Assembly (NCBI GenBank): GCA_031256905.1
Contig: JAIRPY010000129.1
Location: forward strand, 1-54,661
DNA: 54,661 nucleotides
Reading direction: 5' to 3'
From: Spirochaetaceae bacterium
Lineage (GTDB): Bacteria; Spirochaetota; Spirochaetia; Treponematales; Breznakiellaceae
This document shows, one piece after another, positions 1,274 to 47,860 of this stretch. Positions within the stretch are counted from its first letter, which is position 1. Each line of letters starts with the position of its first letter. The notes beneath the pieces are model-generated. The model was not told where the DNA came from, searched no databases, and saw only the letters and a list, made by a program, of their open reading frames with translations. The translations under genes were made by a program, and so were the position numbers.

Positions 1274-1432
1274 CCTTTAAACCTAATTTGCCCTGCTTTT
1301 TTGGTAATTAAATTGCCTTTAAACCTAATTCGCCCTGCTTTTTCGGCAATTAAATTGCCTTTAAACCTAATTCGGCCTGCTTTTTCGGCAATTAAATTAT
1401 CTTTAAACCTAATTTGCCCTGCTTTTTCGGCA
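1274..1432. repeat. Tandem repeat array A: 42-bp unit x 3.8 (CCTTTAAACCTAATTYGCCCTGCTTTTTCGGCAATTAAATTG)
   Basis: Unit starts fall at 1274, 1316, 1358 and 1400, exactly 42 bp apart. The same period appears as a 14-aa repeat in spurious ORF 1202..1555. Confidence 0.95.
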
Positions 1433-1585
1433 CGGCTCCCCCAAAAAACTGCCCGGGGTTACCGGTCTTCATCTTCGGATTCCATTGGCATGATCCGGGC
1501 TTTACGGGTTTTTGCCTTGCCGATTCCGGGAGATTCCAGCGGTATATTCAAGTAACTTTTTTAGAAAGAATCCGAAAAGCGGGGC

Positions 1586-1614
1586 TTGACAAAAAAAACT
1601 AATGATACTATATA
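1586..1614 (+). promoter_or_regulatory. Candidate sigma70-type promoter for trpE-trpG
   Basis: TTGACA (1586-1591), a 17-nt spacer, then TATATA (1609-1614). The element sits about 25 nt upstream of the trpE ATG. Confidence 0.5.
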
Positions 1615-1636
1615 TAGAAACACGAGAAGGAAAAAT

Positions 1637-3103
1637 ATGGATACCCTAAGTTTAGACGAAATACGGTCCCTCCCCGGGGATTACCGGATGATCCCCATCG
1701 CGAAAACTATACCGGCAATTCGGGATCCGTTGGAAATATTCAGGATTCTGAAAAACCTCAGCCGGCAGTGCTTCATCCTCGAAAGCGCAGACCCCCAGGC
1801 CCGTCATGGCCGATATACCTTTCTCGGGTATGACCCAAAACTCGAAATCGCCGGCCTCGATAACGAAGTAACCATCAAAAACGGCGCGGAAATCCGCATC
1901 CAAACCGAAAACCCCGGGCAGTATATCGCCCAAATCCTCGAGGAAAATAAAAGCCCCCGTCTGCCGAACCTGCCCCCCTTTGCAGGAGGCTTGGCAGGCT
2001 ACTTTTCTTACGATTATATCCAGTACAGCGAACCAAAATTGCGGCTCAAAAGCGAAGATCAAGAGTTCTTTAAAGATTTCGACCTCATGCTCTTCGATAA
2101 AGTCATCGCTTACGATAACGTCAAACAAGAAATCACCCTCATCGTCAACGTCAAGACCGACGCCCTCGAGGAAAATTATAACCGGGCCCGGGGCGAATTA
2201 AACCGCCTCGAAGAGATCGTCAAAACCGGCAAACCCGCAGACCTTCCGGCTCTGCGGTTCAAAAGGCCCTTCCGGGAACTCTTCAGTAAGGAACGGTTCT
2301 GCGATATGGTCAGGCAAGCAAAAGAACGGATTCGAGAAGGAGATATTTTTCAGGTGGTTCTTTCAAACCGGCTCGACGCGGCCGTTGAAGGCAGTCTTTT
2401 CGATACATACCGGCTCCTGCGAGACCTAAATCCTTCGCCGTATATGTTTTATTTTTCAAGCGACCATATCGAAATTGCCGGAGCTTCCCCGGAAACTTTG
2501 GTTCAGCTTCAGGAAGGTAATCTTGCAACTTTTCCCCTGGCCGGCACTCGTCCCAGAGGGAAAAATCCCGAAGAAGACGCCAAACTGGAACAGGAACTTC
2601 TCGCGGATCCAAAAGAACTGGCCGAACACAATATGCTCGTCGATTTAGGCAGAAACGATTTGGGAAAAATCAGCGAATTTTCTTCGGTGCAAGTGGAGAA
2701 ATATTTGTCGGTCGAACGGTTTTCCCATGTGATGCACATCGGTTCTGCGGTGAAAGGCAAAATCCAAAAGGGCAAAACCGGACTGGACGCGATAACCGCG
2801 GTACTCCCGGCGGGAACCCTTTCCGGCGCGCCGAAGGTGCGGGCTTGTGAGATTATCCGGGAATTGGAAAATAACAAGCGGGGTATTTACGGCGGCGCGG
2901 TGGGATACATCGCCTTTACCGGCGATACAGATGTCTGCATCAGTATTCGGATTGCGTACAAAAAGAATGAAACAGTGTTTGTGCGTTCCGGGGCAGGCAT
3001 TGTGGCGGACAGCATTCCTGAACGGGAATACGAAGAGTGCGCGAATAAAATGCAGGCGGTAATTACTGCGTTGGAAACCGCGGCGCAAGGAGGCGCGAAA
3101 TGA
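1637..3103 (+). CDS. trpE: Anthranilate synthase component I
   Basis: Carries the TrpE-type motifs ..ILESAD.. and NPSPYMFY plus the chorismate-binding C-terminus (GGAVGY..). An AGGA RBS precedes the ATG at 1637. The ORF-track TTG start at 1586 lies inside the promoter. Confidence 0.9.
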   Translation: MDTLSLDEIRSLPGDYRMIPIAKTIPAIRDPLEIFRILKNLSRQCFILESADPQARHGRYTFLGYDPKLEIAGLDNEVTIKNGAEIRIQTENPGQYIAQILEENKSPRLPNLPPFAGGLAGYFSYDYIQYSEPKLRLKSEDQEFFKDFDLMLFDKVIAYDNVKQEITLIVNVKTDALEENYNRARGELNRLEEIVKTGKPADLPALRFKRPFRELFSKERFCDMVRQAKERIREGDIFQVVLSNRLDAAVEGSLFDTYRLLRDLNPSPYMFYFSSDHIEIAGASPETLVQLQEGNLATFPLAGTRPRGKNPEEDAKLEQELLADPKELAEHNMLVDLGRNDLGKISEFSSVQVEKYLSVERFSHVMHIGSAVKGKIQKGKTGLDAITAVLPAGTLSGAPKVRACEIIRELENNKRGIYGGAVGYIAFTGDTDVCISIRIAYKKNETVFVRSGAGIVADSIPEREYEECANKMQAVITALETAAQGGAK

Positions 3104-3669
3104 TTCTGCTGATCGATAATTACGATAGTTTTTCTTACAATTTGTATCAGCTTATGGGCGGTATAAATCCAGATATTCGGGTGATTCGGAATGACGCAGT
3201 AACTCTGTCGGAGATAGTAGTACTGCGGCCGAGTCACATTGTGCTGTCGCCGGGGCCTGGCCGTCCTGCTGACGCGGGAATCTGCGAAGAGGCGATAGGA
3301 GCTTTTGCCGGGAAGATTCCGATTTTAGGGGTGTGTTTGGGGCATCAGGGGATTTGCGAGGTTTTCGGCGGGAAAATAACCTACGCCGCCGCGCTTATGC
3401 ATGGGAAGGCATCGGCGATTCGGCTGGAACCGGATTGCCCGATCTTCGCGGGTTTGCCTTCGGTGATTTCCGGGGGGCGGTATCATTCCCTTGCGGCGGA
3501 TCCGAAAAGCTTTCCGGAAAAAACTCTCGCCGTAACGGCCCGTTCCGAAGACGGCGAAATAATGGGCGTAAAACACAAAACTTACCCGGTCTACGGCGTC
3601 CAGTTTCATCCGGAATCCATCCTCACTCCGGAAGGAAGCCGAATCCTCCAAAACTTTCTGAAAATATAA
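3100..3669 (+). CDS. trpG: Anthranilate synthase component II (glutamine amidotransferase, TrpG/PabA type)
   Basis: MILLIDNYDSFSYNL.., a GVCLGHQ nucleophile elbow and QFHPES. Its start overlaps the trpE stop in an ATGA junction. Confidence 0.9.
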   Translation: MILLIDNYDSFSYNLYQLMGGINPDIRVIRNDAVTLSEIVVLRPSHIVLSPGPGRPADAGICEEAIGAFAGKIPILGVCLGHQGICEVFGGKITYAAALMHGKASAIRLEPDCPIFAGLPSVISGGRYHSLAADPKSFPEKTLAVTARSEDGEIMGVKHKTYPVYGVQFHPESILTPEGSRILQNFLKI

Positions 3670-3755
3670 ATTCGGACTGGATGAGCGGGACCCTATGTGC
3701 TATATTTCTATCCATGCTTGAATGAGCGGGATCAAAAATATAAATAGGGAAAGGT

Positions 3756-5147
3756 ATGCTTATAAAAGAAATTGTTGCGTTGCCCCCGGAGGCACAGGAA
3801 GCCGCGGTGTTGGGGTGGGTTCGGACTAAACGGGAATTAAAGAATCTGATCTTTGTGGAAATGAATGACGGTTCAACCCTTGAAGGTCTTCAGTGTACCT
3901 TTGATCGCGGGAGCGAAACTTTTAGTTCTGCGGTTGAAGCGGTGTTGTCTGAAGTATCGACGGGCTGTGCGGCGGCGATAACCGGCCGGCTTGTACCGTC
4001 TCCTGGGTCTGGGCAGGCGGTGGAGATTGCGGCCTCGGGGATTGCCCTTTTAGGGAAAGCTCCGGGGGAAACTTATCCTTTGCAAAAGAAGCGGCATTCC
4101 TTGGAGTTTCTTCGGGAGAATGCGCATTTACGGGCCCGAACCAATACGTTTTCCGCGGTTGCCCGGGTGCGGAGTCGTCTTGCTTTTGGGGTGCATGAGT
4201 TTTTTCAATCCCGGGGTTTTCAGTATGTGCATACGCCGATTATCACGGCCAGCGATGCGGAAGGGGCCGGCGCGATGTTTCAGGTGACGACCTTAGATTT
4301 GGAAGCTCTTTCTCGGTCTGGGAAGGGGCCGGCGTATTCCCAAGATTTTTTCGGCAAACCGAGTTATCTTACCGTTTCGGGTCAGCTTGAGGCGGAGACG
4401 TATGCGACGGCTCTATCTCGGGTGTATACCTTTGGACCTACCTTTCGGGCGGAGAATTCCAATACTTCTCGGCATTTGGCGGAGTTTTGGATGATTGAGC
4501 CTGAAGCGGCTTTCGCTGATTTGGCGGACAACCGGGCGTTGGCGGAGGATTTTCTTAAATTTCTTTTTGACCTGGCTCTGCGGGAGTGCCCGGAGGATCT
4601 TGCTTTTTTCGATGCCCGCATAGAAAAGGGTTTGCTTGCTTCGTTGCGTTCTGTTTTGGATTCTCGGTTTGTTCATCTTACCTACACCGACGCGATGAAA
4701 GAGCTGGAGAAAAACGAGTCTGCTTTTGAGTTCAAGCCCTTTTGGGGATGCGATTTGCAGAGCGAGCATGAAAAGTTTCTCACCGAAAAAGTAGCGAAGG
4801 GTCCGGTAATCGTAACCGATTATCCCAAAGAAATAAAAGCGTTTTATATGAAGCTCAACGAGGATGAAAAAACGGTCCGGGCGATGGATGTGCTTGTTCC
4901 TCGCCTTGGGGAAATTATCGGCGGGTCTCAGCGGGAGGAAAACCTGAGCCGGCTTGAGAAACGTATTCTGGAACTCGGCATGAACCTGGAGGATTACTGG
5001 TGGTATCTTGATCTCCGGCGATACGGCACGGTTCCTCATGCAGGTTTCGGCTTGGGCTTTGAACGGCTGATTCAGTACGTCACCGGCATGACGAACATCC
5101 GAGACGTAATCCCTTATCCCCGCACAGCAGGTCAAGCAGATTTCTAA
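3756..5147 (+). CDS. asnS: Asparagine--tRNA ligase
   Basis: Class IIb aaRS layout: an N-terminal OB anticodon-binding domain, motif 2 FRAE..SRHLAEFWMIEPE, and motif 3 GFGLGFERL. The length (463 aa) is typical of AsnRS. Confidence 0.9.
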   Translation: MLIKEIVALPPEAQEAAVLGWVRTKRELKNLIFVEMNDGSTLEGLQCTFDRGSETFSSAVEAVLSEVSTGCAAAITGRLVPSPGSGQAVEIAASGIALLGKAPGETYPLQKKRHSLEFLRENAHLRARTNTFSAVARVRSRLAFGVHEFFQSRGFQYVHTPIITASDAEGAGAMFQVTTLDLEALSRSGKGPAYSQDFFGKPSYLTVSGQLEAETYATALSRVYTFGPTFRAENSNTSRHLAEFWMIEPEAAFADLADNRALAEDFLKFLFDLALRECPEDLAFFDARIEKGLLASLRSVLDSRFVHLTYTDAMKELEKNESAFEFKPFWGCDLQSEHEKFLTEKVAKGPVIVTDYPKEIKAFYMKLNEDEKTVRAMDVLVPRLGEIIGGSQREENLSRLEKRILELGMNLEDYWWYLDLRRYGTVPHAGFGLGFERLIQYVTGMTNIRDVIPYPRTAGQADF

Positions 5148-5209
5148 AGCCCGCCGAGCATCTTTCCTGTCCTCCGCCGGCGGGCTTTAGGTTGGCCGGC
5201 GGAGGACAG
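5148..5209 (+). terminator. Two overlapping GC-rich hairpins immediately after asnS
   Basis: H1 pairs AGCCCGCCG (5148-5156) with CGGCGGGCT (5178-5186) and is followed by TT. H2 is a perfect 14-bp stem, CTGTCCTCCGCCGG (5167-5180) with CCGGCGGAGGACAG (5196-5209). The arms overlap, so the two folds are mutually exclusive. Confidence 0.5.
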
Positions 5210-5253
5210 ACCGGCTTGATAGAGAAACTCTCCATGGCTCTTATGCGGCTTAA

Positions 5254-5655
5254 TCCGTTAAAAAATTTTCCGTATATTGCCTTGAGGAGTTTCACACGAG
5301 TTTTCACATTTACGAGGATGAACCCAAGGAGTATAAACTGACCGATGCTTTGGAGATACATTCGTATTGCAGGAGGTAGTAAAGATGGATAGCGGGATAC
5401 AGCGGGCGCAGGAGCGCATGGATTTTGTGACGATGGATCGAGGCTTATCGGGCATATGAACTGCGGGAAGCCCAGATTGCCTTTTACGACGAGGATGTCC
5501 GGGAAGCCGCAAAAGCGGCAAAAGAAGCGGCCCGAAACCGGGACTTTGAGATTGCCCGGAATCTCAAAGCGATGGGGATTCCTATTGAACAGATAAGCTG
5601 TGGGACAAATTTGACTCCCGAAGAAATTAGAAAAACTGTAAACCTGGCAATCTAA
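5254..5655 (+). pseudogene. Degraded remnant of an Rpn/YhgA-like (PD-(D/E)XK putative transposase) gene, C-terminal two-thirds only
   Basis: Three out-of-frame pieces are visible: ..FHIYEDEPKEYKLTDALEIH.. then stop, MDSGIQRAQERMDFVTMD.. then stop, and ..AYRAYELREAQIAFYDED..RDFEIARNLKAMGIPIEQISCGTNLTPEEIRK. These resemble the conserved middle and tail of Rpn-family proteins. No nuclease N-terminus is present. Confidence 0.5.
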
Positions 5656-5692
5656 AATGCAATCCTTCGGGTACGGGCGTTTCGGGAAAAGG

Positions 5693-6502
5693 CTAATCCG
5701 TAATACGGCCGCTATGGGAATAAATGTTCATATACCCGCGCCGCAAAAATCCCGCGAGGGTAATGCCCGCGGCTTCCGCCTGCCGGACCGCGCTCGATGT
5801 AACCGCGCCGTGACACAGCAGAACTTTCACGCCGGTACGTTCAACCATCCGGCACAAGTTCAGGGATAGTCTGCCGCTGAACATAAAGGCTTTTCCCGCA
5901 GGATCAAGCTCGCCGAGAACCATGCGCCCGATAGTCTTCGCCGCGGCGTTGTGCCGAGCCGCATCTTCCCGCAAAATAAGAATAGTATCGCTGTCCGTAA
6001 GAGCCATCGCATGAACCGCCCCGGTTATGTGAAACAAGTTGCTCTTCTCGTTAAAAATTTCCCACAAGGCGTAAATTTTTTCTTTTTTAAATTTTTCGTT
6101 TTTTTCGTTTTTTTCCTCAGAATTTTTTTCTTTAGAAAAATATTCGCTAGAAAGACTTTCTATTTTTTCTTTTTCTTTAGAAAAATTTTCTTTAGGAAGA
6201 TTAGAAAAATTAGAAAAAAAAGAGAAAAGGGAAAGGCGGATTTCCTGAGCGTCCCGGTCAACCGAGAGGCTCTGGATTTCCGCCTTGCTGTTGAAAAACC
6301 CTTCCGCAAAAGCGTAGCCCGCGGCAAGGTCTTCTAAATCAATGGGCGTACAGGCAAACGTGTAGATTCGCTGTTCGTTGATGTATAACGTATACGCCTC
6401 TTCCCGGATTAACCGGTCGCTTCGCCGGTAGCGGCGGGATTCGTCGATCCGGATGATGCTCAATTCTTCCCATGAGGCGGTACCGTTTGCCCTTTCGCCC
6501 AT
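5693..6502 (-). CDS. fdhD: Formate dehydrogenase accessory protein FdhD homologue, atypical because the Cys loop is replaced
   Basis: It aligns by eye with E. coli FdhD: ..TPIDLEDLAAGYAFAEGF.., TGAVHAMAL, REDAARHNAAAK, and a C-terminal ..AVTSSAVRQAEAAGITLAGF... I prefer the start at 6502 (MGERANG), 8 nt after the upstream stop. The longer ORF-track start overlaps the ferredoxin gene. Confidence 0.8.
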   Translation of the reverse strand: MGERANGTASWEELSIIRIDESRRYRRSDRLIREEAYTLYINEQRIYTFACTPIDLEDLAAGYAFAEGFFNSKAEIQSLSVDRDAQEIRLSLFSFFSNFSNLPKENFSKEKEKIESLSSEYFSKEKNSEEKNEKNEKFKKEKIYALWEIFNEKSNLFHITGAVHAMALTDSDTILILREDAARHNAAAKTIGRMVLGELDPAGKAFMFSGRLSLNLCRMVERTGVKVLLCHGAVTSSAVRQAEAAGITLAGFLRRGYMNIYSHSGRITD

Positions 6503-6510
6503 ACTCGCGC

Positions 6511-9212: not shown

Positions 9213-9426
9213 GGAGTACCCTCCTTCCATTTTCTCTATCCAATATAGAAAGAAAATTATAGTTTAAATTAGTATGACCCTGAACCATGAAAAGATCAAG
9301 CGTTTTTTGCTTATAATCTTGCCTCATCAGAGGGATTAGAAATTCTTAAAAAAAATATTTTTCCCTATTGAACAAGTTTTTTTTTTATGATAGGCTCATC
9401 TATCATATTTTGGAGTTTAGTATACT

Positions 9427-9837: not shown

Positions 9838-9843
9838 GGAAAA

Positions 9844-10317: not shown

Positions 10318-10352
10318 TTTTTCCAAAAAAAGAAAAAGTTGAGGAGATAAGT

Positions 10353-10652: not shown

Positions 10653-10664
10653 CAAGGAGCGTAT

Positions 10665-11693
10665 ATGCCGGGAACAGGAGAACAGGCTTACGCCTACGCC
10701 AAGGCCTGCGGAATTATCGGCAAATCCTTTGTCGGCAAACGGGTAAGCCGCCTCGCCGAGGTAAACCGCCTGTCCGAACTGGACCGCCTCGTGTTCCCCA
10801 ACGAAAGCCGGGACATCCCGGAACGGGAACTGCTGGTCGATATGGAAGACCGCATCATCCAGCGGGGGGTCAAGCAAATCATTTCGGTCCTGGATTCCTT
10901 CATAAAACCTCCGGAACTGCTCATCCGGCTGGTCCGAACTTACGAATACGAAGATTTAAAAATCTTTTGCGGCGCCTTAGGGCAGGGCGAATCGAAAGGA
11001 CCGGACTTTACTGACATCGGCGCGTTCAGAACCGTCAATTTTTCCGCCTACCCAAACCTCGAGGCCATGGTTGCCGGCACGGAATTCAGGTTTCTCTTGC
11101 AGGAAGACCTGCGGCCGGACCGCAAAAAAGAAAAACCCGAAATAACCTCGGAAAATTTGGCGGTCCAAATCGCTCTGGATCGGCAGTATTACCAGTCCCT
11201 CTGGAACGACCTCTTCAAACTAAAACGAAGGGACCGAATCGGGATTGAAAAAATCCTGCGGGATGAGCTGTCTCTGCGCAACGCGGTTCTTGCCCTCCGT
11301 ATGCGGACCTACTACGGAATGCCCTCCGAGGAAATTCGGGAAAAGTTCATCGCCTTTGAAGCCGGCAAAAAAAGCCCGCCGGAAACCGCGCTCACCCTCC
11401 CCATGGACCACAGAGCCGACTGGAAAGGCTGGAAATGGGAACGTTTCCTCAATCCCGAAAAACCCGGAGAACCCTGGCGGGTAGACCCCCGATACTTCCA
11501 AAACGCCGGGTCTAAATATCTGTATCGGCAAGCCCGATTTTCCTTCCGGCGAAGTGCTTCGTCGTTGGATTCGATTTTTTGTTTCATAAAACTGAAACTT
11601 TTTGAAGAAGACCTCTTGACCAGCGTCGCCGAAGGCCTTGGAATGGGTATGACAAGCAGAGATATTTTTACCCTTCTGGAGGTAGAAACGTGA
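10665..11693 (+). CDS. V/A-type ATPase subunit C (d-type)
   Basis: The call rests on operon position, size (342 aa) and a helical-repeat composition typical of NtpC/subunit d. Confidence 0.6.
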   Translation: MPGTGEQAYAYAKACGIIGKSFVGKRVSRLAEVNRLSELDRLVFPNESRDIPERELLVDMEDRIIQRGVKQIISVLDSFIKPPELLIRLVRTYEYEDLKIFCGALGQGESKGPDFTDIGAFRTVNFSAYPNLEAMVAGTEFRFLLQEDLRPDRKKEKPEITSENLAVQIALDRQYYQSLWNDLFKLKRRDRIGIEKILRDELSLRNAVLALRMRTYYGMPSEEIREKFIAFEAGKKSPPETALTLPMDHRADWKGWKWERFLNPEKPGEPWRVDPRYFQNAGSKYLYRQARFSFRRSASSLDSIFCFIKLKLFEEDLLTSVAEGLGMGMTSRDIFTLLEVET

Positions 11694-13759: not shown

Positions 13760-13778
13760 GGTTTAGGGGGGTGCAGGT

Positions 13779-14081: not shown

Positions 14082-14084
14082 GCG

Positions 14085-14426
14085 GTGGATTACTTTTTCA
14101 TCGGGGACCCGGAATTGGCCACGGCTTTCCGGTTCGTCGGCATCCGAGGAACCGGAGCAAGTAAAGCCGAAGACGCCGTCGCCGCCTTCCGGCGAATCAC
14201 CGAAGGCTGGGACGAAACCGCCAAAGCAATCCGACCGGAAACCGAACAATGCCGGATCCTCATCATCACCGAAGAAGTCGCCGACTGGCTGGGAGATTTC
14301 CTCACCCAATGGCAGTTGTCCGACCGCTACCCGCTGATAGTTGAGGTCCCCGGCATGATGGGAAGACTCCCGGGCAGAAAAAGCCTCGTTGATTCCATCC
14401 GGGAAGCCATCGGCATCCACGTGTAG
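14085..14426 (+). CDS. V/A-type ATPase subunit F
   Basis: 113 aa with MDYFFIGDPELATAFRFVGIRG.., typical of subunit F. It has a GTG start 3 nt after the atpK stop. Confidence 0.7.
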   Translation: MDYFFIGDPELATAFRFVGIRGTGASKAEDAVAAFRRITEGWDETAKAIRPETEQCRILIITEEVADWLGDFLTQWQLSDRYPLIVEVPGMMGRLPGRKSLVDSIREAIGIHV

Positions 14427-14474
14427 TTTTTTCTTTTTTAAATTTCTTTAATTTTAAAAAGAAAAAACCAAAAA

Positions 14475-14527
14475 GGCGGATTTTTACTTTTAATTTTAAA
14501 GAAGAAAATCCGCCGGTTTTTCTTTTT
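14475..14527 (+). terminator. Intra-operon hairpin plus T-run (rho-independent terminator-like) within a 179-bp AT-rich spacer
   Basis: GGCGGATTTT (14475-14484) pairs with AAAATCCGCC (14505-14514). GGTTTTTCTTTTT follows. Confidence 0.55.
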
Positions 14528-14605
14528 ACTTCTCAAGAAAGCGGAAAACCCTAGAAAAAAGAAAAAAAAGAAGGAAGATTAGAAAAAAAGAAAGAAGAGG
14601 AAAAA

Positions 14606-15265
14606 ATGGAAGAAATACGATCTACCGAAACGCTGGACCGGGAAATTTTGGAAGAAGCCCGGAAAAAAGCTTACCGGATCCTCAAAAGCGCGGAAGAATC
14701 GGTAAAAACTGCCGTGGAAACTTGGGCTTTGAAAACGGAAACGGATATAGCGGAAATCCGCAGTCGTTACGCCCAGCGGCTGAAAGTTATGAAAGATGAA
14801 CTTTTTGCCCGGCTTATTCTCGATAAACGCAGAATCCGGGCTGAAAAGATAGAAGGACTGCTCAAATCTGCGATGGAATCTTACCTTCGAAGCTTAAGCC
14901 GGGAAGCCCTTCTATCTATTCTGGAACGGACTTTGCGTCAGCGGCTGGATTTCCTGCGGGAAACCGGGGAATTCCCGGACCAAACAAACCTTCAAGTCCA
15001 ATCCTGCAACCTTGAAGCCGGAGAATTGGAGAGGATGCTTCACCGGCATCTGCCCAAGGGAAGCTGGTCGGCCGTCGCCCCGGAACCCGGGAAACCGGAC
15101 CCTTTCTTGGACGCCCGGTTTCCCGCTGTGGCAATAACCGCCCCGGATCTGCGGATCGCGGCTTCCCTCGACAGCCTTGCCGGGCAATTATTGGAAGATA
15201 ACCGGGCGGAACTCGCGGTTTCCCTGGTCGGGGAAGAAATCCTGCTGGAAGGAGGGGCAATATGA
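14606..15265 (+). CDS. atpE: V/A-type ATPase subunit E
   Basis: 219 aa. The N-terminal half is a charged long helix (..[19 protein letters not shown]..). It sits immediately upstream of the A subunit. Confidence 0.65.
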
Positions 15266-20098: not shown

Positions 20099-20866
20099 AT
20101 GGAAGATTATTACGCTCTGCTTGGAGTTAACGGTCAGGCCTCTTTGCAGGACATAAAGCGGGCCTTTCGGTCCCAGGCGAAGCGGCTTCACCCGGATCTT
20201 GCCGGAACCGGCGGGGCCGAAGAAATGCGGAAATTGCTGGCCGCTTACGAGGTTCTTTCGGATCCGGAGCGGCGGTTTGCCTATGATCGGGTGTTTTTCA
20301 AACGTGCCGGCTTTGATTACCCCCGGTTTCTTCGGGAGCAGACGGAGGACCCGAAAAGTCAGGCGAAGCTGATTTTTTTCGAGTTACTGCATTTTGCCGC
20401 AGAAGAGGCTATTGCAGTGTGGCGGTCCCAGGGAGGAGTGCATTTTGCGATGGACCGGTATATGGATCGGGAAGATTGGATGGATTGCGCGTTTTTACTA
20501 GCCGAAGCTTTGGAGGAACGCCGATGTTATTACGAGGCCTTTATACTTATGGTTAGTCTTGTGCAGGCCGAACGGCGGAAGCCTTATTTCAAGCATTTTT
20601 TTGTGGACCTGGAGGGGTCTTTAAAGGAATTGGTTCGGCTTAGGCTTAAGGCTTCGGTGGATCCGGAGACGTATCTGGCCTGTATGGACCGGCTTTTGGG
20701 TTTAGGCTTTCCCCCGAAGGACGAAGCCCGATGGCTTCGGGCTATGGCGGAAACTTTAGCCCGACTGGGCCGGATCGCTCCCGCCCAAAGGGTATTCCAT
20801 GAAGCCCTCAACCGGGACCCCCGGCTTTCCAATACGGCCCGGCTCAGACGCAAACTCGGGGTGTGA
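20099..20866 (+). CDS. J-domain (DnaJ-like) protein with a helical C-terminal domain
   Basis: N-terminal DYYALLGV..DIKRAFR..AKRLHPDL.. carries the HPD motif. There is no Zn-finger or G/F region. Confidence 0.8.
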   Translation: MEDYYALLGVNGQASLQDIKRAFRSQAKRLHPDLAGTGGAEEMRKLLAAYEVLSDPERRFAYDRVFFKRAGFDYPRFLREQTEDPKSQAKLIFFELLHFAAEEAIAVWRSQGGVHFAMDRYMDREDWMDCAFLLAEALEERRCYYEAFILMVSLVQAERRKPYFKHFFVDLEGSLKELVRLRLKASVDPETYLACMDRLLGLGFPPKDEARWLRAMAETLARLGRIAPAQRVFHEALNRDPRLSNTARLRRKLGV

Positions 20867-20892
20867 AATTATGGTATATTTTAAGGAAAAAA

Positions 20893-21663
20893 ATGATACG
20901 TCTAAAGAATGAAAAGCAGATTAACGGCATCCGGACTTCCTGCCGTATGTTAAGTTCGATGTTTCAGGAACTCCTTCCCTTAGTGGTTCCGGGAGTGGAA
21001 ACCTTGGAATTAGACCGATGGACTCGCAGGTGGATCCAAAAAGCCGGGGGAAAACCGGCGTTTTTGGGGTACGGACCTGAGGCCAATCCGTTTCCTGCGG
21101 CAATTTGTATTTCTATAAACGACGAAGTGATTCATGGGATTCCCTCTAAACGGAAAATCCTTGAGGGGGACTTGGTGTCTCTGGACTGCGGCATTGATCT
21201 GGGGGGATTTATCAGCGATCAGGCGGTAACTGTGGAAGCTGGAAAAGTTACCGAAGCCGCACATAATCTCAATAGAATTACCCAGGAATGCCTGTATCGG
21301 GGAATTCTCGCGGCAAAAGCCGGGGACCGGTTGCTACAAATTGCCCGATCTGTGCATAGCCATGCGATTGCCCATGGCTATGGGGTGGTCCATCAATTTT
21401 GCGGGCATGGCGTCGGCTTTGAGGTGCATGAAGAACCCGCGGTATCCAACAACCCCAAAGGGCCTAATCCGCGGATGCAGAGCGGTTTTGTTATAGCCAT
21501 TGAACCGATGATAAATCTTGGAACCGGAGATGTAACAATTAAAGACGACGGCTGGACGGTGGTTACCGCGGACCATAAATTATCCGCCCATTGGGAGCAT
21601 ACGGTAGCGATTTTCAAGGATCACACCGAAATCCTGACAGAACGCCTAGACTCCGCCTCGTAG
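20893..21663 (+). CDS. map: Methionine aminopeptidase, type I
   Basis: MIRLKNEKQINGIR.., with metal ligands in ..DLVSLDCG.., ..FCGHGVG.., ..IEPM.. and ..HWEHT... I prefer the ATG at 20893 to the GTG at 20863. Confidence 0.9.
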   Translation: MIRLKNEKQINGIRTSCRMLSSMFQELLPLVVPGVETLELDRWTRRWIQKAGGKPAFLGYGPEANPFPAAICISINDEVIHGIPSKRKILEGDLVSLDCGIDLGGFISDQAVTVEAGKVTEAAHNLNRITQECLYRGILAAKAGDRLLQIARSVHSHAIAHGYGVVHQFCGHGVGFEVHEEPAVSNNPKGPNPRMQSGFVIAIEPMINLGTGDVTIKDDGWTVVTADHKLSAHWEHTVAIFKDHTEILTERLDSAS

Positions 21664-28341: not shown

Positions 28342-28920
28342 ATGGCTTTTAATTTGCAAAAAGGCGAGAAAGTGGACCTCACCAAGGGGAATCCCGGGTT
28401 ATCCAAACTGGTAATCGGCCTCGGCTGGGATGTAAACAAGTACGACGGCGGCGAAGCCTTCGATTTAGACGCCGGGGCCTTCCTTTTAACGGGCTCCGGG
28501 AAGGTAATACGCGAAAGCGACTTCGTATTTTATAATAATCTGGTCCATGGAAGCGGCGGCGCGGCCCATTTAGGCGATAACCGCACCGGCGCAGGAGAAG
28601 GGGACGACGAACAGATAAAAATCGATCTGGCCAAGATTCCCGGAGAATACGAAAAAATCGATTTCACCGTGACTATTCACGAAGCCGAGGCCCGGAAACA
28701 AAATTTCGGCCAAGTGAGTAACGCCTTTATCCGGGTGGTAAACGAAATTACCGGCGCGGAACTTATGCGATACGACTTGGGAGAAGATTTTTCGGTAGAA
28801 ACCGCCGTAATTGTCGCGGAACTTTACCGAAACGGCCCCGAATGGAAATTCAACGCCATCGGCAACGGCTTCAAAGGAGGCTTAGCCGCCTTGTGCCGAA
28901 ACTTCGGCATCGCAGTCTAG
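28342..28920 (+). CDS. terD: TerD-family stress protein
   Basis: [15 protein letters not shown]...LGWD....G.AFDLDA.AFLL.. and ..[14 protein letters not shown].. Ca-binding-type motifs. Confidence 0.9.
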
Positions 28921-29055: not shown

Positions 29056-29365
29056 TTTCTTCCCCCGGGGTGTAAAACCTTTTCCCCCGAGGGAAATTTC
29101 TTCTCAGCCTTGGGTAAAAATTTCTCCCATGCCTGAAACTTTTTCTCAGCCTTGTGTAAAATCTTCTCAGCCTTGGGAGAAAACTTTTCCCATGTGGATA
29201 AAGTCTTCTCAGCCTTGCGAGAAAACTTCTCCCATGTGGATAAAGTCTTTTCAGCCTTGTGAAATTTCTTCTCAGCCTTGTGAGAAAACTTCTCCCATGC
29301 GGGTAAAATCTTTTCAGCCGTGGGAAAAAACTTTTCAGCCGTGGGAAAAAAATTTTTCCCTGGTT
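29056..29365. repeat. Tandem repeat array B: about 14.5 units of 21 bp, with two interspersed unit types
   Basis: The TCAGCC or TCCCAT landmark recurs at 29083+21n, from 29083 to 29335 without any indel. The units are TTCTCAGCCTTGNGARAAAAC and TTYTCCCATGYGGRTAAARTC. The same period appears as a 7-aa repeat in spurious ORF 29129..29374. Confidence 0.95.
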
Positions 29366-35914: not shown

Positions 35915-36002
35915 TTTTTCTAACTCCTACCTATAATATATATCTTTTTTCCCCTAGGGTCACTTTGTAGACGCAAAAGAGCCGGCATGGTATACTATCC
36001 CC

Positions 36003-39222: not shown

Positions 39223-39234
39223 CAAGGAAAGCAC

Positions 39235-40182: not shown

Positions 40183-40233
40183 GGGACCCGATATAAAGGC
40201 CGGGGAAAACCCGGCCTTTATTAAGGAGAGAAC

Positions 40234-41127: not shown

Positions 41128-41167
41128 GGTTATTGCCAAATATTTCTCTTCAAGATACTTTAAAAAT

Positions 41168-44100
41168 GTGGAAAAGATACAGCGAGTGTATGTGGAAAAA
41201 AAGCCGGGTTTTGACCTTGAAGCCCGGCGTCTTCAGGCGGAATTGGCCATGTTTCTTGGTTCCGCCTTGGCCGGCCTGCGGATTCTCCAGCGGTATGATG
41301 TGGCAGGCCTAACCCGGGAGGGTTTCGGGCAGGCGGTGCAGGCGGTTTTCGCAGAACCCTCCGGGGATCAGATTTTTCTTTGTGAAGCCGTCCCCGGGGG
41401 TCCTAAGGAGCAAGTCTTCGGCGTGGAATTTCTTCCCGGGCAATACGATCAGCGCAGAAATTCCGCCGAGGAATGCATCGAACTCATTCTGGGGGTCAAG
41501 CCGGCGGTAAGAACCGCCCGGATTTTCCTCCTTCGGGGGGATAAGCCCCTTTCGGAAAGGGCCTTAAACGAAGTAAAGGGGTATCTCATAAATCCCGTGG
41601 ATTCCCGGGAGGCTTCCCTGGCCCTGCCGGATTCGCTGGAAGAACCGCCGCCGGAGCCCCAGGACATCCCAATCCTTACCGGCTTTTCCCGAGCTTCTCC
41701 GGCGGAACTGGCGGAAATCTCTGGGTCCTTGGGTCTTACCTTGGCGGACCTGCTTTTTTGCCAGGGCCATTTCGCCGCCCTCGGCCGGGACCCTACCCTG
41801 GCGGAACTTCGCATTCTCGGCGTTTATTGGTCGGATCACTGCCGGCACAGTACGTTTACTACGGCTCTGGACATTGAAGTTTCGGAATCTTTGGGCCGGG
41901 CCTTTGACCTTTACGAGAGGGCCCGGAAGGCGGTGTATTCGGATCCGCCGCCGTATTCGCTTATGGATCTGGCTACCATCGGCGCGAAATTTCTAAAAAA
42001 GCAGGGCCTTTTGCCGGATGGAGACGAATCGAAGGAAATGAACGCGGCCGCTATTAAGATTCGGGGGGAATTTAAAGATTCCCCGGCGGAAGACTGGCTT
42101 CTTCTTTTCAAAAACGAAACCCATAATCATCCGACGGAAATTGAGCCTTTTGGAGGCGCGGCGACCTGTTTAGGCGGCGCGATCCGGGACCCCCTTTCGG
42201 GCAGAGCTTACGGGTATCAGGCCCTGCGGATTTCCGGGGGCGGCGACCCCAGACAGGCCTGGGCCGAAACTCTGCCGGGGAAAGTGCCGCAACTTAAACT
42301 GGCCCGGGAATCTGCCCGGGGATTTTCTTCTTACGGCAACCAAATCGGCATCGCCACGGGCCTTGTGGCTGAATTTTATCACCCCGGATTTATTGCGAAA
42401 CGGCTTGAATTAGGCGCGGTTATCGGCGCGGTCCCGGCGGGGCAGGTTCAACGGGCAAGCCCTCGGCCGGGAGATGCGGTAATTCTCGTCGGAGGGAAAA
42501 CCGGCCGAGACGGCATCGGAGGCGCCACGGGCTCATCCCAAGTTCACACCAACGAATCGGTACGAAAATCCGGCGCGGAAGTCCAAAAAGGAAATCCCGT
42601 GGAAGAACGAAAACTCCAACGCCTTTTCCGAAACCCCCAAGCGGCAAAACTTATCAAGCGATGTAACGACTTCGGCGCGGGCGGCGCGGCCGTCGCGGTG
42701 GGGGAACTCGCTCCGGGAGTCGAAATAACCCTCGAGGCCATGCCGAAAAAATATGCCGGCCTGGACGGCCTCGAGCTGGCGATTTCGGAATCCCAAGAAC
42801 GCCTGGCTGTGGTGGTTTCGCCGGAACACACAGAAAGGTTTATCCATCTGGCGGCCCAGGAAAACCTCGAAGCTACGGTCCTAGCCAAGATCACCGATGG
42901 AGACGAGGCCGAACCGGAAAGCTACTCCCCCAAGGATCCCGATGCAGGCCCCCATCTCCGGTTCCTTTGGCGCGGAAAGGTCCTGGCCGATCTTTCCCGG
43001 CAATTCTTGAATTCTAACGGCCCGGCCCGCTCGGCTAAGGTTCGCCTTCCTTCTTTTTCTGCTCCTTCTTCTCCTGAAAAGGCAGAAATGCCCCTCCCGA
43101 ACCTTATCGAGGAATTGGGGTCCCTGCGGTCTGGGAGCCGCCGGGGTTTGCAGGAACGCTTCGATGGGTCTATCGGCGGGGGGTCGGTTCTGTTTCCTTT
43201 TGGGGGGGCCGAGCAAGGGACTCCCGAATGCGGGATGGCGGCTTTGCTTCCCAGCCTTGAGAAGGAGAGCCTTACGGCCAGTCTGGGGACCTTTGGTTAT
43301 GACCTGGAATCTAATCCCTACGAAGCCGGGAAAGGCGCGGTTCGGGAGGCCCTAGCTAAATTTGCGTGTCTCGGAGGGAATCCCTGGAAGTGCCGGCTTT
43401 CTCTTCAGGAGTATTTTCCCCGGCCGGAAAGTCCGGAGGCCTGGGGCCTGCCGGGGGCCGCGCTTTTGGGGGCCCTGGAAGCTCAGCTTAGGCTGGAAGT
43501 GCCGGCTATCGGGGGGAAGGATTCTATGTCCGGCACGTATCGGGGGGAGGCCGGGGACTGGACCGTACCGCCGACGCTGATCGCTTTTGGGATGGGAACC
43601 CTTCGGGCCGAGAAGGTTCGGTCCGGCGCGCTCACCGGGGCCCCGGGGATGGATATTATTCTTTTGCATCAGTCCGGGGCCGAGGAATGGGAAGTTTTCA
43701 AAAAGAACATGAATACCCTGATCCGCCTTGGAGAGGCCGGGCTGGTTCGGGCGGCTTATCCGGTAGGCCCTGGGGGCCTGGCCCCGACCCTGGCGGTTAT
43801 GGCCTTCGGTAACCTGACCGGAGTTGAAGTTCTGACGGACCTGGGGTATCTGCCTCGGGGTTCGGTATTGGCGGAGCTTCAGCCCTCGGCCTCTGGGGAG
43901 GCTATTCTTGCTTCGGCCGGAGCTTGGGTTAAGGCGGCCGAGACTCTGGCGGAACCGGTCCTTCGGCTTAGGGGAGAAACCTTTTCTTTGGCGGCCCTTC
44001 GGGAGATTTATGAATCTCCCTTGGGGCAGGTTTATCCCCAAACTTCCGGGGCTTCTTCGGTCCTGCCGGTTCTGCCCCGCCGGGTTGGGCGGTCTCATCC

Positions 44101-44914
44101 GAGGATTCGCTTCGGCCTTCCTTTGACTATTTTACCCGTCTTTCCGGGAACTAATTGCGAATGGGACCTGGAACGGGCCTTTCGCCGGGCCGGAGGGAAG
44201 ACTCGGATGCTTATTTTTAGGAACAGGACCCGGGAGGATCTTCAGGAATCTTTGCGGGAATTGGCCCAGGCTATAGGGGAGGCCCAGATTATTGCTTTGG
44301 CCGGGGGATTCAGCGCGGGGGATGAGCCGGATGGTTCGGGCAAGTTTATAGCCAATGTTTTGCGTTCCCCGGCGGTGCAGGAGGCGGTGCTGGATTTTCT
44401 TGAAAATCGGAAGGGCCTTATTCTCGGCATCTGCAATGGGTTTCAGGCCCTTATCAAGACGGGCCTGGTGCCTTATGGCGAGTATCGGCCGGGGCCGGGG
44501 CCGGGGCCGACTCTGACCTTTAACCATCTGGGAAGGCACATTTCCCGGATGGTTCGCACGACGGTTATGTCCACGGTTTCGCCTTGGCTGGCCCTGGAAG
44601 AAGTAGGGGCGGTTCATATCCTTCCGGTGAGTCATGGCGAAGGGCGTTTGGTAATAGACCCGGCCGAAGGAGCCGGGCTTTTTCAGGCCGGACAAGTTCC
44701 CTTTTGCTACGCCGATGCCCAGGGGAATCCGGCCGGGACGGAACCGGATAATCCAAACGGCTCGGCCCTGGGAATCGAAGCTCTGGCCAGTCCAGAAGGC
44801 CGAATTTTAGGTAAAATGGCCCATTCCGAGCGGTTCGGCGAGTTCGTTCACATCAACATCCCCGGAAATAAACATCAACGGATCTTTGAAGCCGGAATCC
44901 GCTACTTTTCTTGA
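41168..44914 (+). CDS. purL: Phosphoribosylformylglycinamidine synthase, single-chain large form
   Basis: 1248 aa with N-terminal ..VYVEKKPGFD.., PurM-like repeats (..ETHNHPT.IEPF.GA.T..GG.IRD..), and a C-terminal GATase (..GICNGFQAL.. , ..SHGEGR..). GTG start. Confidence 0.9.
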   Translation: MEKIQRVYVEKKPGFDLEARRLQAELAMFLGSALAGLRILQRYDVAGLTREGFGQAVQAVFAEPSGDQIFLCEAVPGGPKEQVFGVEFLPGQYDQRRNSAEECIELILGVKPAVRTARIFLLRGDKPLSERALNEVKGYLINPVDSREASLALPDSLEEPPPEPQDIPILTGFSRASPAELAEISGSLGLTLADLLFCQGHFAALGRDPTLAELRILGVYWSDHCRHSTFTTALDIEVSESLGRAFDLYERARKAVYSDPPPYSLMDLATIGAKFLKKQGLLPDGDESKEMNAAAIKIRGEFKDSPAEDWLLLFKNETHNHPTEIEPFGGAATCLGGAIRDPLSGRAYGYQALRISGGGDPRQAWAETLPGKVPQLKLARESARGFSSYGNQIGIATGLVAEFYHPGFIAKRLELGAVIGAVPAGQVQRASPRPGDAVILVGGKTGRDGIGGATGSSQVHTNESVRKSGAEVQKGNPVEERKLQRLFRNPQAAKLIKRCNDFGAGGAAVAVGELAPGVEITLEAMPKKYAGLDGLELAISESQERLAVVVSPEHTERFIHLAAQENLEATVLAKITDGDEAEPESYSPKDPDAGPHLRFLWRGKVLADLSRQFLNSNGPARSAKVRLPSFSAPSSPEKAEMPLPNLIEELGSLRSGSRRGLQERFDGSIGGGSVLFPFGGAEQGTPECGMAALLPSLEKESLTASLGTFGYDLESNPYEAGKGAVREALAKFACLGGNPWKCRLSLQEYFPRPESPEAWGLPGAALLGALEAQLRLEVPAIGGKDSMSGTYRGEAGDWTVPPTLIAFGMGTLRAEKVRSGALTGAPGMDIILLHQSGAEEWEVFKKNMNTLIRLGEAGLVRAAYPVGPGGLAPTLAVMAFGNLTGVEVLTDLGYLPRGSVLAELQPSASGEAILASAGAWVKAAETLAEPVLRLRGETFSLAALREIYESPLGQVYPQTSGASSVLPVLPRRVGRSHPRIRFGLPLTILPVFPGTNCEWDLERAFRRAGGKTRMLIFRNRTREDLQESLRELAQAIGEAQIIALAGGFSAGDEPDGSGKFIANVLRSPAVQEAVLDFLENRKGLILGICNGFQALIKTGLVPYGEYRPGPGPGPTLTFNHLGRHISRMVRTTVMSTVSPWLALEEVGAVHILPVSHGEGRLVIDPAEGAGLFQAGQVPFCYADAQGNPAGTEPDNPNGSALGIEALASPEGRILGKMAHSERFGEFVHINIPGNKHQRIFEAGIRYFS

Positions 44915-45193
44915 AGGACCCTAGACTTTCCCAGCAGGGCCCTAGACTTTCCCAGCAGGGCCCTAACTCTTCCCGGCATGGCCTTAATCTTTCCCGGAAT
45001 GGCCTTAAACCTTCCCGGAATGGCCTTAGACTTTCCCGGAATGGCCTTAAACCTTCCCGGCAGGGCCTTAAACCTTCCCGGCAGGGCCTTAGACTTTCCC
45101 GGCATGGCCTTAGACTTTCCCGGAATGGCCCTAATCTTTCCCGGCATGGCCTTAATCTTTCCCGGAATGGCCTTAAACCTTCCCGGCATGGCC
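44915..45193. repeat. Tandem repeat array C: 13 exact-register 21-bp units plus a partial unit (ATGGCCTTAAACCTTCCCGGM)
   Basis: Unit starts fall at 44915+21n through 45167, with no indels. The array starts 1 nt after the purL stop. It runs into the last codons and the stop (45173-45175) of the convergent helicase gene. Confidence 0.97.
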
Positions 45194-47212
45194 GGCAGGG
45201 CCCGCCCGGAAGCGGTTTTTCATCATGGCGAAGAAGCGTTCCGCTTCGGCGGGGGCGGTTTCGAGTTCCGGCTCTTCTTCCCGGTACTCGACGAGATGCT
45301 CCGGGATTTCCGCGAGGAACGGCGAGGGCAGACATTCCCCGGAGGACTGAAGCCTCCGGCGGTTCAGACAGCTGGTGATAACCAGTTTGTCCCGGGCCCG
45401 GGTAATCGCCACGTAGAAGAGCCGCCGTTCCTCTTCGATGCCTCCGGCGTCGTCTTCGAGGCTTCGGGCGTGGGGGATGATGCCGTCTTCCGCGCCCGCG
45501 ATAAACACCACCGGAAACTCAAGCCCTTTGGCCGCGTGAATCGTCATCAGGTTGACTTTGCCTTTATCGCTGTCATCGCCGTCGTCCCGGGAGAGCAGGC
45601 TGATCCGGTTCAGGTAAGGATACAGGGTCGGATCAAGATTGTCCGGGTCTCGCTCCCAAACCTCGATGGACTGAATCAGAGAGCCGATATTCCCAAACTT
45701 CCACCGCGCGGCTTTTTCGTTTTTGCTGTATTCCGCGACTAAATATCCCCAGTAATCGATTTCGTCTACCATAGCTCTGACTTTTTGCGAAAGCCCTCGG
45801 CGTCCTAACATTCCTTCCCGCAGATTTTCGATGAGGGTCATAAAATCGTCCAGTTCCTGTTTGGCGGTTTCCTGAAAGAGCGTGTCTTGGGCGTATCTCT
45901 GCCCGGCCATTGCGTCCCAGAGGGAAGAGCCGTTCTTTTTGGCGATATCCGAAATCCCGGCGATCGCGGTTTTCCCGATGCCTCTGCGGGGGGTGTTGAT
46001 AATCCGCAGGAGATTTACATCATCCTGAGTATTCCCGATTACCCGCAGGTAAGACAGCACATCTTTTATTTCTTTGCGCTGAAAAAAACTTGTGCCGCCG
46101 GAAACTTGGTACGGAATATTTTCCGCGAGAAAGGCTTCTTCCAAATTCCGGATCAGCGAGTTGGTTCGGATAAGCACTCCGAAATCGTCGTATTTGAGTT
46201 TATAATGTTCCCGGAACCGGATTTTTTTTATTTCCCCGGCGATGAATTCGGCTTCTTCGGTTTCGTTTTGGGGCGTGTAGATTTCGATAGGTTTTCCGCC
46301 CCGGTTTCCGGACCAGAGGGTTTTTTCTTTCCGGTTGGTGTTGTTTGAGATTACGCCGTTTGCGGCTTCGAGGATAGTCGAAGTCGAGCGGTAATTCTGT
46401 TCGAGTTTAATCTCGATAGTTCCGGGGAAATCCCGCTCGAACAGGAGGATATTTTCGTAGTTTGCGCCCCGCCAAGAGTAGATTGACTGGTCGTCGTCGC
46501 CTACGACGCAGACGTTGCGGTCTGCTAAGAGCCGCAGGAGCCGGTATTGGGTGAAGCTGGTGTCCTGAAACTCGTCAACCATAAGGTAGCGGTATCTGCG
46601 GCGGTATTTTTCGAGGATTTCCGGGAAGGTTTCAAAGAGTTCGATAGGAATTACCAGCAAGTCGTCGAAGTCGAGGGCGTTGAAGACCTTGAGGCTCTGC
46701 TGATACGCGGCGTAGACCGGCTCGAAGGCTGAATCCGCGCCGTTTCCCCAGCGGAGTCTGCCGATTTTTATGTTTGAGAAGAGCTGACCCAAGGCGTAGA
46801 GGTCGGTTTTTTCGGCGGAGAGCTTACATTCCCGGAGGCTTTCTTTGATGAGTTCGGTTCGGTCGGTTTCGTCGTAGATTGAAAAGTTTTTTCGGTATCC
46901 GAGGTTTTCGATTTCGTCCCGCAGGATTTTGACGCCGAAGGCGTGGAAGGTATTGATTGCGAGGTTTTGGAGTTTTCTGCGGGTGCGTTCTTTGATTCGC
47001 TGTTCCATTTCTTTTGCGGCTTTATTGGTGAAGGTGAGGGCGAGGATCGCCGATTGGGGGATGCCTTGTTCGAGCATATACGCGATGCGGTAAGTGATGA
47101 CTCTGGTTTTCCCGGACCCCGCGCCGGCTATGATGAGTATCGGACCGTCGATGCTTTTGACGGCTTGTATCTGTTTTTCGTTCAGCTCCGCGGAAAAATC
47201 GATCTGTCCCAT
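45173..47212 (-). CDS. ATP-dependent DNA helicase, PcrA/UvrD/Rep family (SF1)
   Basis: Motif I ..AGAGSGKT.., ..VDEFQDT.., ..GDDDQSIYSWRGA.., ..NYRST.. and ..T.H..KGLEF..VF..G.. motifs. Confidence 0.9.
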   Translation of the reverse strand: MGQIDFSAELNEKQIQAVKSIDGPILIIAGAGSGKTRVITYRIAYMLEQGIPQSAILALTFTNKAAKEMEQRIKERTRRKLQNLAINTFHAFGVKILRDEIENLGYRKNFSIYDETDRTELIKESLRECKLSAEKTDLYALGQLFSNIKIGRLRWGNGADSAFEPVYAAYQQSLKVFNALDFDDLLVIPIELFETFPEILEKYRRRYRYLMVDEFQDTSFTQYRLLRLLADRNVCVVGDDDQSIYSWRGANYENILLFERDFPGTIEIKLEQNYRSTSTILEAANGVISNNTNRKEKTLWSGNRGGKPIEIYTPQNETEEAEFIAGEIKKIRFREHYKLKYDDFGVLIRTNSLIRNLEEAFLAENIPYQVSGGTSFFQRKEIKDVLSYLRVIGNTQDDVNLLRIINTPRRGIGKTAIAGISDIAKKNGSSLWDAMAGQRYAQDTLFQETAKQELDDFMTLIENLREGMLGRRGLSQKVRAMVDEIDYWGYLVAEYSKNEKAARWKFGNIGSLIQSIEVWERDPDNLDPTLYPYLNRISLLSRDDGDDSDKGKVNLMTIHAAKGLEFPVVFIAGAEDGIIPHARSLEDDAGGIEEERRLFYVAITRARDKLVITSCLNRRRLQSSGECLPSPFLAEIPEHLVEYREEEPELETAPAEAERFFAMMKNRFRAGPAGHAGKV

Positions 47213-47314
47213 ATCCTGTAGTATACGGATACTAAAACTAAATACAAGCCGTTCCCGCAGACCCTCCGCGCCGGGGCGGACCGTTTTCCCTTTCCCCCGA
47301 TTTTTTTAAACTTT

Positions 47315-47860
47315 GTTAGCGTTTACGGAAACTCTGTTAGCATTTACGGAAACTTAGTTAGACTGTACAAAGACTTCGTTAGACCATACGGAGACTTCGC
47401 TAGACTATACGAAGACTCCGTTAGACTGTACGGAAACTTTGCTAGACTGTACGAAGACTTCGTTAGACCGTACGGAGACTTCGCTATACTGTACGGAAAC
47501 TCTGTTAGACCGTACAGAAACTTCGTTAGACCGTACGGAAACTCTGTTAGACCGTACGGAAACTTAGTTAGCTTTTACGAAGTCTCCGTTAGACCGTACA
47601 AAGACTCCGTTAGTGTTTACGGAAGTTTCAGCAATGTTTACGGAAGTTTCAGCAGTGTTTACGGAAACTTCAGCAATGTTTACGGAAGTTTCAGCAGTGT
47701 TTACGGAAACTTCAGCAATGTTTACGGAAACTTCAGCAATGTTTACGGAAGTTTCAGCAATGTTTACGGAAACTCTAGCAATGTTTACGGAAACTCTAGC
47801 AGTGTTTACGAAAGTTCCATCAGTGTTTACGGAGTTTCCGTTAGCGTGTACGGAAAATAT
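47315..47860. repeat. Tandem repeat array D: 26 exact-register 21-bp units in two sub-families
   Basis: Units start at 47315+21n. Units 1-15 and 26 are about GTTAGACCGTACGGAAACTYY. Units 16-25 are about AGCARTGTTTACGGAARTTTC. There are no indels across 546 bp. Confidence 0.97.

Follow-up and report, generated by a model that had tools for sequence, protein, structure and literature searches.

The window analysed here, a stretch of 54,661 bases forming contig JAIRPY010000129.1 of a Spirochaetaceae bacterium, carries four intergenic tandem arrays (A to D) which all keep a period of 21 bp or of its double, 42 bp. The common period exceeds chance, and the distinctive feature of the arrays is that this one period extends over unrelated sequences. 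We lean towards considering them non-coding, satellite-like minisatellites of the variable-number tandem repeat (VNTR) type, specific to this lineage, which would evolve by slippage or unequal exchange of whole units and the period of which would have been either inherited or imposed.

Four intergenic arrays with one period

The window was surveyed with Tandem Repeats Finder, by lag-by-lag autocorrelation and by listing the units of each array in register. All three confirm the arrays at the four loci where an earlier note on this DNA had placed them, and no other long arrays were found with Tandem Repeats Finder or autocorrelation. Together the arrays occupy 1,294 bp, which is 2.4% of the window (Table 1). 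Long periodic signal is restricted to lags that are multiples of 21, and upon masking of the arrays the autocorrelation leaves only three A/T-rich low-complexity stretches at 0.60 in the rest of the window. Sub-periods of 7 bp or 10.5 bp were found in the arrays neither by the autocorrelation scans nor upon reading of the unit listing.

The register is kept throughout. The spacing from one unit start to the next is always 21 in arrays C and D, array B stays in a single register over all of its units, and none of the four arrays shows any shift, so that the net number of insertions or deletions (indels) is zero. The units have nevertheless diverged substantially: to relate those within the arrays, no fewer than 81 column-state changes are required, and minimum spanning trees of the units contain 133 substitutions. 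The usual ratio of indels to substitutions in bacterial non-coding DNA is about 1:10, and thus about 8 or more indels would be expected for at least 81 changes. As no net indel is found, the period lock is a genuine property of the arrays. The earlier proposal that the period is better kept than the sequence is therefore borne out. For array D, the count of 26 units of 21 bp stands as well, while its extent, given before as 47315-47860, becomes 47308-47853 when read in register. A 21-bp sub-period had also been claimed for array A; this had to be abandoned, as the two halves of its 42-bp unit are unrelated and A is thus a 42-bp repeat.

Within the arrays, the units are not equally diverged. 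The most diverged ones sit at the edges of arrays B, C and D, and the interiors contain higher-order blocks of 42, 63 and 105 bp. All three block sizes are found in array B, where two unit types alternate.

To assess how unusual the common period is, we used a comparison set of 1.28 Mb, consisting of loci around homologues of the helicase that is encoded next to arrays C and D. About half of this set is from spirochaetes, and close relatives (81-83% helicase identity) make up only about 25 kb of it. The relatives yielded 34 arrays of 50 bp or more. The period is a multiple of 3 in 27 of them, and these are probably coding. Only 4 of the 34 have a period of 21 or 42 bp, each with at most 3.8 copies. 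With this background, the chance of such a period in four of four arrays is 0.118^4, or about 2e-4. In addition, the density of arrays of 150 bp or more is about 15 times higher in the window than in the relatives. The 25 kb from close relatives contain a single 42-bp repeat, and this repeat is coding (contig L084).

The arrays are related in period, not in sequence. We compared position-frequency profiles in each of the 21 possible rotations and on both strands, with column-shuffled arrays as null, and also subjected the arrays to gapped local alignment against column-permuted arrays. The only related pair in the profile comparison is formed by the two sub-arrays of D, which match at rotation 0 (z 4.1); D2 has the same register as D1, and TACGG is the main sequence common to both. 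All profile pairs between different arrays are within chance, the best being C with D2 (p 0.018, uncorrected for 15 tests). Gapped alignment resulted only in a weak match between A and C (GCCTTTAAACCT and GCCTTAAACCTT; p 0.025, uncorrected over 12 tests). Several claims of the earlier note are thereby left without support. It had proposed a shared core, namely an A-rich tract followed by C(C/T)TT(C), which does not exceed chance in either comparison, and a common framework for the first units of B and the units of C, which show no relation above chance in either. A motif shared across the arrays above a shuffled background, which it had suggested as a check, is not found apart from the relation of D1 to D2, and without a common motif the view that the arrays form one motif-sharing family, serving as platform for one protein, is not supported.

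The flanks are no more alike than the units. They have no shared leader, tail or terminal inverted repeat (best z at most 5.8, not significant after 56 comparisons), and target-site duplications at the arrays were not found. This agrees with the earlier view that the arrays do not resemble miniature inverted-repeat transposable elements (MITEs). They are also not clustered regularly interspaced short palindromic repeats (CRISPR), as had been stated correctly: units abut, their spacing equals the unit length and there are no spacers.

The units were also searched for elsewhere. Those of arrays C and D produced 63 single chance matches only in the metagenome collection and one and three chance matches only in viral contigs, while the units of B and D have no match to plasmids.

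Table 1. Tandem arrays of the window, and contigs from other assemblies that match it
Feature	Position in window, or source	Strand	Organisation, or match to window	Unit sequence, or contig end
Array A	1274-1432	.	42-bp unit x 3.8, 93% matches	GCCTTTAAACCTAATTCGCCCTGCTTTTTCGGCAATTAAATT
Array B	about 29056-29365	.	15 units of 21 bp, one register	CTTCTCAGCCTTGTGAGAAAA and CTTCTCCCATGTGGATAAAGT
Array C	44915-45208	.	13 units of 21 bp (44915-45193) plus a degenerate 14th to 45208	ATGGCCTTAAACCTTCCCGGC plus variants
Array D	47308-47853	.	exactly 26 units of 21 bp in two in-register sub-arrays, D1 and D2
Array D1	47308-47622	.	15 units of 21 bp, 42-bp alternation	AAACTTCGTTAGACCGTACGG plus variants
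Array D2	47623-47853	.	11 units of 21 bp, 63-bp higher-order repeat	AAACTTCAGCAATGTTTACGG plus variants
L087	Logan SRR14710896		100% over 7,209 bp	ends 116 bp into array B
L090	Logan SRR14710896		matched by exact window protein	ends 85 bp into array C, after purL
L091	Logan SRR14710896		matched by exact window protein	ends at about 47850, right edge of array D
L088	JGI 3300041968		99.86%	ends about 118 bp into array B
L089	JGI 3300041968		99.3%	ends 140 bp into array A
L081	JGI 3300041968		99.6%	starts at 47313, left edge of array D

All four arrays are intergenic among housekeeping genes, as judged from open reading frame (ORF) lists and from tRNA, Rfam and Pfam scans. The intergenic position that had been assigned to them is thus confirmed by the ORF lists and by the Pfam annotation of the neighbours, which are trpE, terD, ptsI, purL, a uvrD-like helicase gene, holA and the gene for tRNA-Met. 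Array A lies between an outer-membrane-like gene (471-1157) on one side and trpE (1586-3103) on the other, and array B between terD (28342-28920) and ptsI (29402/29514-31273). Array D1 is located 95 bp upstream of the helicase start and array D2 150 bp upstream of the tRNA-Met gene (48003-48075). Array C begins one base past the purL stop codon and occupies the entire gap to the convergent gene for the UvrD/PcrA helicase, so that the last 10 codons of the helicase and its stop codon come from array C (45173-45205, minus strand). The purL frame, when followed past its TGA, is open across all of array C and further (44912-45742); this is probably due to chance, two of the three plus-strand frames being open there. 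The helicase has 76% identity to its counterpart in Breznakiella homolactica and 74-75% to Treponema primitia proteins, and the organism is therefore an uncultured relative of the termite-gut treponemes.

Some further repeats were encountered. Two A/T-rich intergenic regions of the window (6070-6230 and 14426-14614) contain 9-bp repeats of the TTAGAAAAA type and short inverted repeats, and an identical 19-mer, TTTTTTCTTTTTTAAATTT, occurs at both 6076 and 14427. Directly downstream of tRNA-Met (48082-48142), there is a GC-rich region with 5-6 copies of a GGCCCCTGCC-like sequence at a period of about 10-11 bp. Among the relatives, the 42-bp repeat of L084 (81% helicase identity) is present in 3.8 copies of QETDRKMQETAQQM at 11100-11259, with the contig ending inside the repeat. 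It is in the N-terminal part of its gene, the C-terminal part of which resembles what we take to be a putative PD-(D/E)XK/DUF3782-type domain. Two perfect heptanucleotide microsatellites occur at contig ends: ACGACCC x 17 within the 5' end of an ORF (L003, 12129-12246) and AAACAGC x 13.7 upstream of an acyltransferase-3 gene (L159, 8-103). Both resemble phase-variation loci. L159, which is from a relative with 66% purL identity, also has a 258-bp x 3 repeat in a gene with a Big_3 domain (20782-21549).

Differences between strains and assemblies

Contigs that match the window were found in two further data sets, Logan SRR14710896 and JGI 3300041968 (Table 1). They enter arrays A, B and C or stop at the edges of D, and the repeats are thus real in the reads of two samples and in other assembly pipelines.

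A comparison of the window with JGI contig L089 shows where the strains differ. All nine mismatches (1302-1400) are located inside array A, of which 141 bp could be compared, and there is no mismatch in 1172 bp of flanking sequence. The probability that nine of nine mismatches fall into the array is about 2e-9. The units of array A show mosaic reshuffling between the window and L089. This contig starts at a run of 18 C (101-118) which, in the window, follows upon A/T-rich low-complexity sequence at the contig start (1-120), and the poly-C run is thus a further assembly break point.

A larger difference is seen for array C, which is missing from the 3' end of the helicase gene in the JGI strain represented by L081. 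In L081 (2095-2240) the helicase ends with ..NRFK* and is followed by fabD-fabG-lepA, while in the window it ends with ..NRFRAGPAGHAGKV*, extending into array C and facing purL. The 99.6% identity between L081 and the window breaks off exactly at the edge of array C; therefore, array C is strain-specific and is located at a rearrangement junction. The gene order around helicase and purL is conserved in none of the relatives compared. As a possible source of the array C unit, the array-free allele of L081 was considered and rejected, the similarity not being significant (p 0.08-0.14).

Explanations for the common period

We consider the reading as lineage-specific minisatellites to be the one that best accommodates these data, and the VNTR option, which the earlier note had listed among others, fits the nine of nine strain differences within array A and the lack of array C in L081. 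The arrays consist of head-to-tail units within the 10-100 bp range of minisatellites, and strain variation is concentrated in the array. In each array, copies of a unit particular to that locus would follow one another head to tail, the unit being either 21 bp long or, at 42 bp, composed of two diverged 21-mers. Such arrays would grow, shrink and homogenise by misalignment of whole units, be it through replication slippage, unequal exchange or gene conversion, and this would yield blocks of 42, 63 and 105 bp, older diverged units at the edges and mosaics between strains. Diverged edges together with higher-order blocks are the pattern expected of arrays that evolve by whole-unit misalignment. 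The mechanism of slippage and unequal exchange is what we infer, as is any reason for the number 21.

As there is no common motif, a single sequence-specific binding protein does not explain the shared period. It may have been inherited from one ancestral 21-bp satellite, with divergence of its copies through concerted evolution; D1 and D2 would then represent drift with the register kept, and A and B would be 42-bp higher-order units of diverged 21-mers. Alternatively, it may be imposed by helical phase: an indel would break the phase of two helical turns and would be removed. Either could apply, and the two are not distinguished by the present data. It is also possible that the arrays influence adjacent promoters or bind proteins via the dyads that occur in the units of A, B and D1.

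Several points weigh against this explanation. Nothing that we measured accounts for a unit length of 21 rather than 19 or 23, and common descent of the arrays finds no support in the profile or gapped-alignment comparison. Relatives hold intergenic-looking arrays of 23, 25, 28 and 86 bp, and therefore a universal helical-phase filter for 21 bp is not evident. The absence of indels could in part result from recent amplification. Finally, the genome sample consists of one contig of about 55 kb, which bears on generality, and the interior and copy number of array D as well as the helicase side of array C are seen in the window contig alone.

A different explanation, which we regard as unlikely, invokes a molecular ruler: a protein specific to this lineage, either an enzyme or a tight binder of DNA, whose footprint spans 21 bp, would repeatedly duplicate the 21 bp present at a site, for example through an integrase-like staggered cut or through a replication block, so that each locus has its own sequence and all have the same period. 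This would account for one period over unrelated units and is consistent with the restriction of the arrays to one lineage when compared with the 1.28 Mb of relatives, with unit sequences that, chance matches aside, are found nowhere else in metagenomes, viral contigs and plasmids, and with the position of array C exactly on a strain-specific junction. However, array C could not be traced to the array-free allele at that junction, a candidate gene is not found beside the arrays, where the flanking genes are housekeeping genes, and the window lacks scattered 21-bp direct repeats, which single insertion events would have left behind. Moreover, higher-order blocks and mosaics are accounted for by ordinary unequal exchange.

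The arrays might also be same-face binding platforms or titration arrays, made up of amplified operator-like sites which are phased at two or four helical turns. This is slightly less probable still than a ruler. As indicated in the earlier note, units of 21 bp expose the same face of the helix at intervals of two turns; this stands, yet it follows from the period alone and is silent on function. When the units were compared to shuffles, three unit types turned out to have dyads longer than those of most shuffles. Each unit of array A contains a 7-1-7 palindrome, GGCAATTAAATTGCC (p 0.015), some units of D1 contain a 6-1-6 palindrome, ACGAAGACTTCGT (p 0.03-0.09), and the unit of array B has a 6-N6-6 dyad (p 0.09). 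Fisher combination of the p values, by hand calculation, results in about 0.02. We take this as a weak hint from the sequence that the units may be amplified operator-like sites or may form hairpins that favour slippage. The significant or near-significant dyads, the location of A, B and D upstream of promoters and the lack of indels, by which phase is kept, would all suit a platform. But the units of C and D2 have no significant dyad, and C, which is located between convergent genes, is dispensable in another strain. Without a shared motif at least four different proteins would be needed, and 13-26 copies are well above known operator arrays. A reading of the array A palindrome as sigma-54 promoter also failed. 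Sigma-70 promoters and terminators in the arrays do not exceed shuffles. Palindromic 4-mers, considered as restriction-site decoys, were dismissed because their pattern is inconsistent between arrays.

Selection for intrinsically curved DNA with phased bending, which had been among the proposals of the earlier note, is distinctly less probable. Curvature was predicted with a wedge model, using parameters of the Bolshoy-Trifonov type. With these parameters, A, B and D2 have ratios of end-to-end to contour length of 0.73, 0.41 and 0.43, respectively, which places the three in the lowest 0-0.3% of random genomic segments; C (0.92) and D1 (0.86) are predicted to be about as straight as ordinary DNA. 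When compared with arrays built from random 21-mers, however, A, B and D2 are only in the 18th-29th percentile. Any 21-bp array sums its small per-unit bend coherently, and therefore no extra selection for bending is visible. No array goes beyond random-21-mer arrays in the model and two are nearly straight, so that curvature as selected property finds no support in this model.

Very improbable is a heptad-repeat coding sequence, be it active or decayed. It would suit a unit of 21 bp, corresponding to 7 codons, several open frames across the arrays, including the purL frame through array C, and the 42-bp coding repeat (a putative coiled coil) of the relative with 81% helicase identity. However, six-frame translation shows open frames at about the rate that is expected of any repeat, and none of the array frames is opened by a start codon (ATG, GTG or TTG), which upholds what the earlier note had stated on heptad coding. 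The substitutions and flanks point the same way: per-column entropy shows no excess of substitutions at third positions, and the flanks of 0-150 bp are too short for the remainder of a decayed gene. When the translations of the array ORFs were concatenated and used as query against proteins, no match was obtained. Structured RNA was addressed in addition. With Rfam 15, only tRNA-Met is found at the gathering threshold, and at E-values up to 1 there is one chance match to a plant microRNA model. In folding comparisons, for which dinucleotide shuffles were also used, only array B beats its column-permuted controls (z -3.8 and -4.6), because its unit holds the dyad TTCTCA-N6-TGAGAA.

Least credible of all is an assembly artefact of 21-base words: common metagenome assemblers have 21 as their smallest word length (k) by default and the interior of D comes from a single contig, but contigs from two samples and two other pipelines enter A, B and C by 85-140 bp (3-5 units), carry identical variant units and break exactly at the edges of D, which therefore argues against such an artefact, and the many ordered unit variants go beyond what a simple graph cycle yields.

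Known repeat systems and significance

The arrays can be classed with bacterial VNTR loci as used for multiple-locus VNTR analysis (MLVA), such as the MIRU loci of Mycobacterium tuberculosis. These are likewise intergenic, head-to-tail, with units of tens of bp and without spacers, and slippage and unequal exchange make them variable between close strains. Within a genome, however, the known VNTRs differ in unit length, while here four unrelated arrays all have units of 21 or 42 bp and no indels. With 2.4% of a region of housekeeping genes, they are also unusually dense.

Eukaryotic satellite DNA has several properties in common with the arrays, namely a fixed unit length, divergence between arrays, higher-order blocks, diverged edges and homogenised interiors. 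The arrays described here differ in being bacterial, in having a size of only 0.16-0.55 kb and in lacking a centromere or telomere context. Plasmid iterons and centromere repeats of the ParR/parC type are direct repeats of about two turns (20-22 bp) which expose the same face for cooperative binding. The two-turn phasing is also found here; however, such repeats occur in 3-12 copies of one sequence beside a rep or par gene on a plasmid or phage, while our arrays have 13-26 copies, four sequences and no plasmid or viral match, and are located among chromosomal housekeeping genes with no rep or par gene adjacent. CRISPR arrays are likewise intergenic and variable between lineages, with a comparable repeat length, but in addition to the lack of spacers there is no cas-like gene among the ten annotated neighbours of our arrays.

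BrickBuilt from Porphyromonas gingivalis is a species-specific, strictly intergenic minisatellite/MITE which is found at 19 loci and has a 23-nt unit without spacers; its unit sequence is the same at all loci, its leader and tail subunits end in inverted repeats, and promoter activity has been measured for it (PMC4596501). It resembles the arrays in being a spacer-free intergenic tandem repeat of about 20 bp at many loci, while the arrays have neither unit nor flanks in common and have no inverted ends. In the literature, we did not find a description of intergenic 21- or 42-bp arrays of this kind.

Whether the rule extends beyond this contig is a separate matter. We consider it rather doubtful, though conceivable, that the arrays belong to a genome-wide system with dozens to hundreds of intergenic arrays which have a period of two turns, freely running sequence and a lineage-specific ruler, be it the footprint of a protein, an enzyme of integrase-like type or helical-phase selection. 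If true, this would represent a new class of bacterial satellite DNA or a new mutational machinery.

As a rule, minisatellites of bacteria are regarded as typing markers, scattered over the genome and of arbitrary unit length. For this organism, the arrays are the break points of short-read assemblies, and in at least one case an array marks a rearrangement specific to a strain, with a changed C-terminus of the UvrD/PcrA-type helicase as result. A common period throughout the genome, if confirmed, would suggest a rule on intergenic spacing, physical or selective, or duplication in 21-bp steps that is specific to this lineage.

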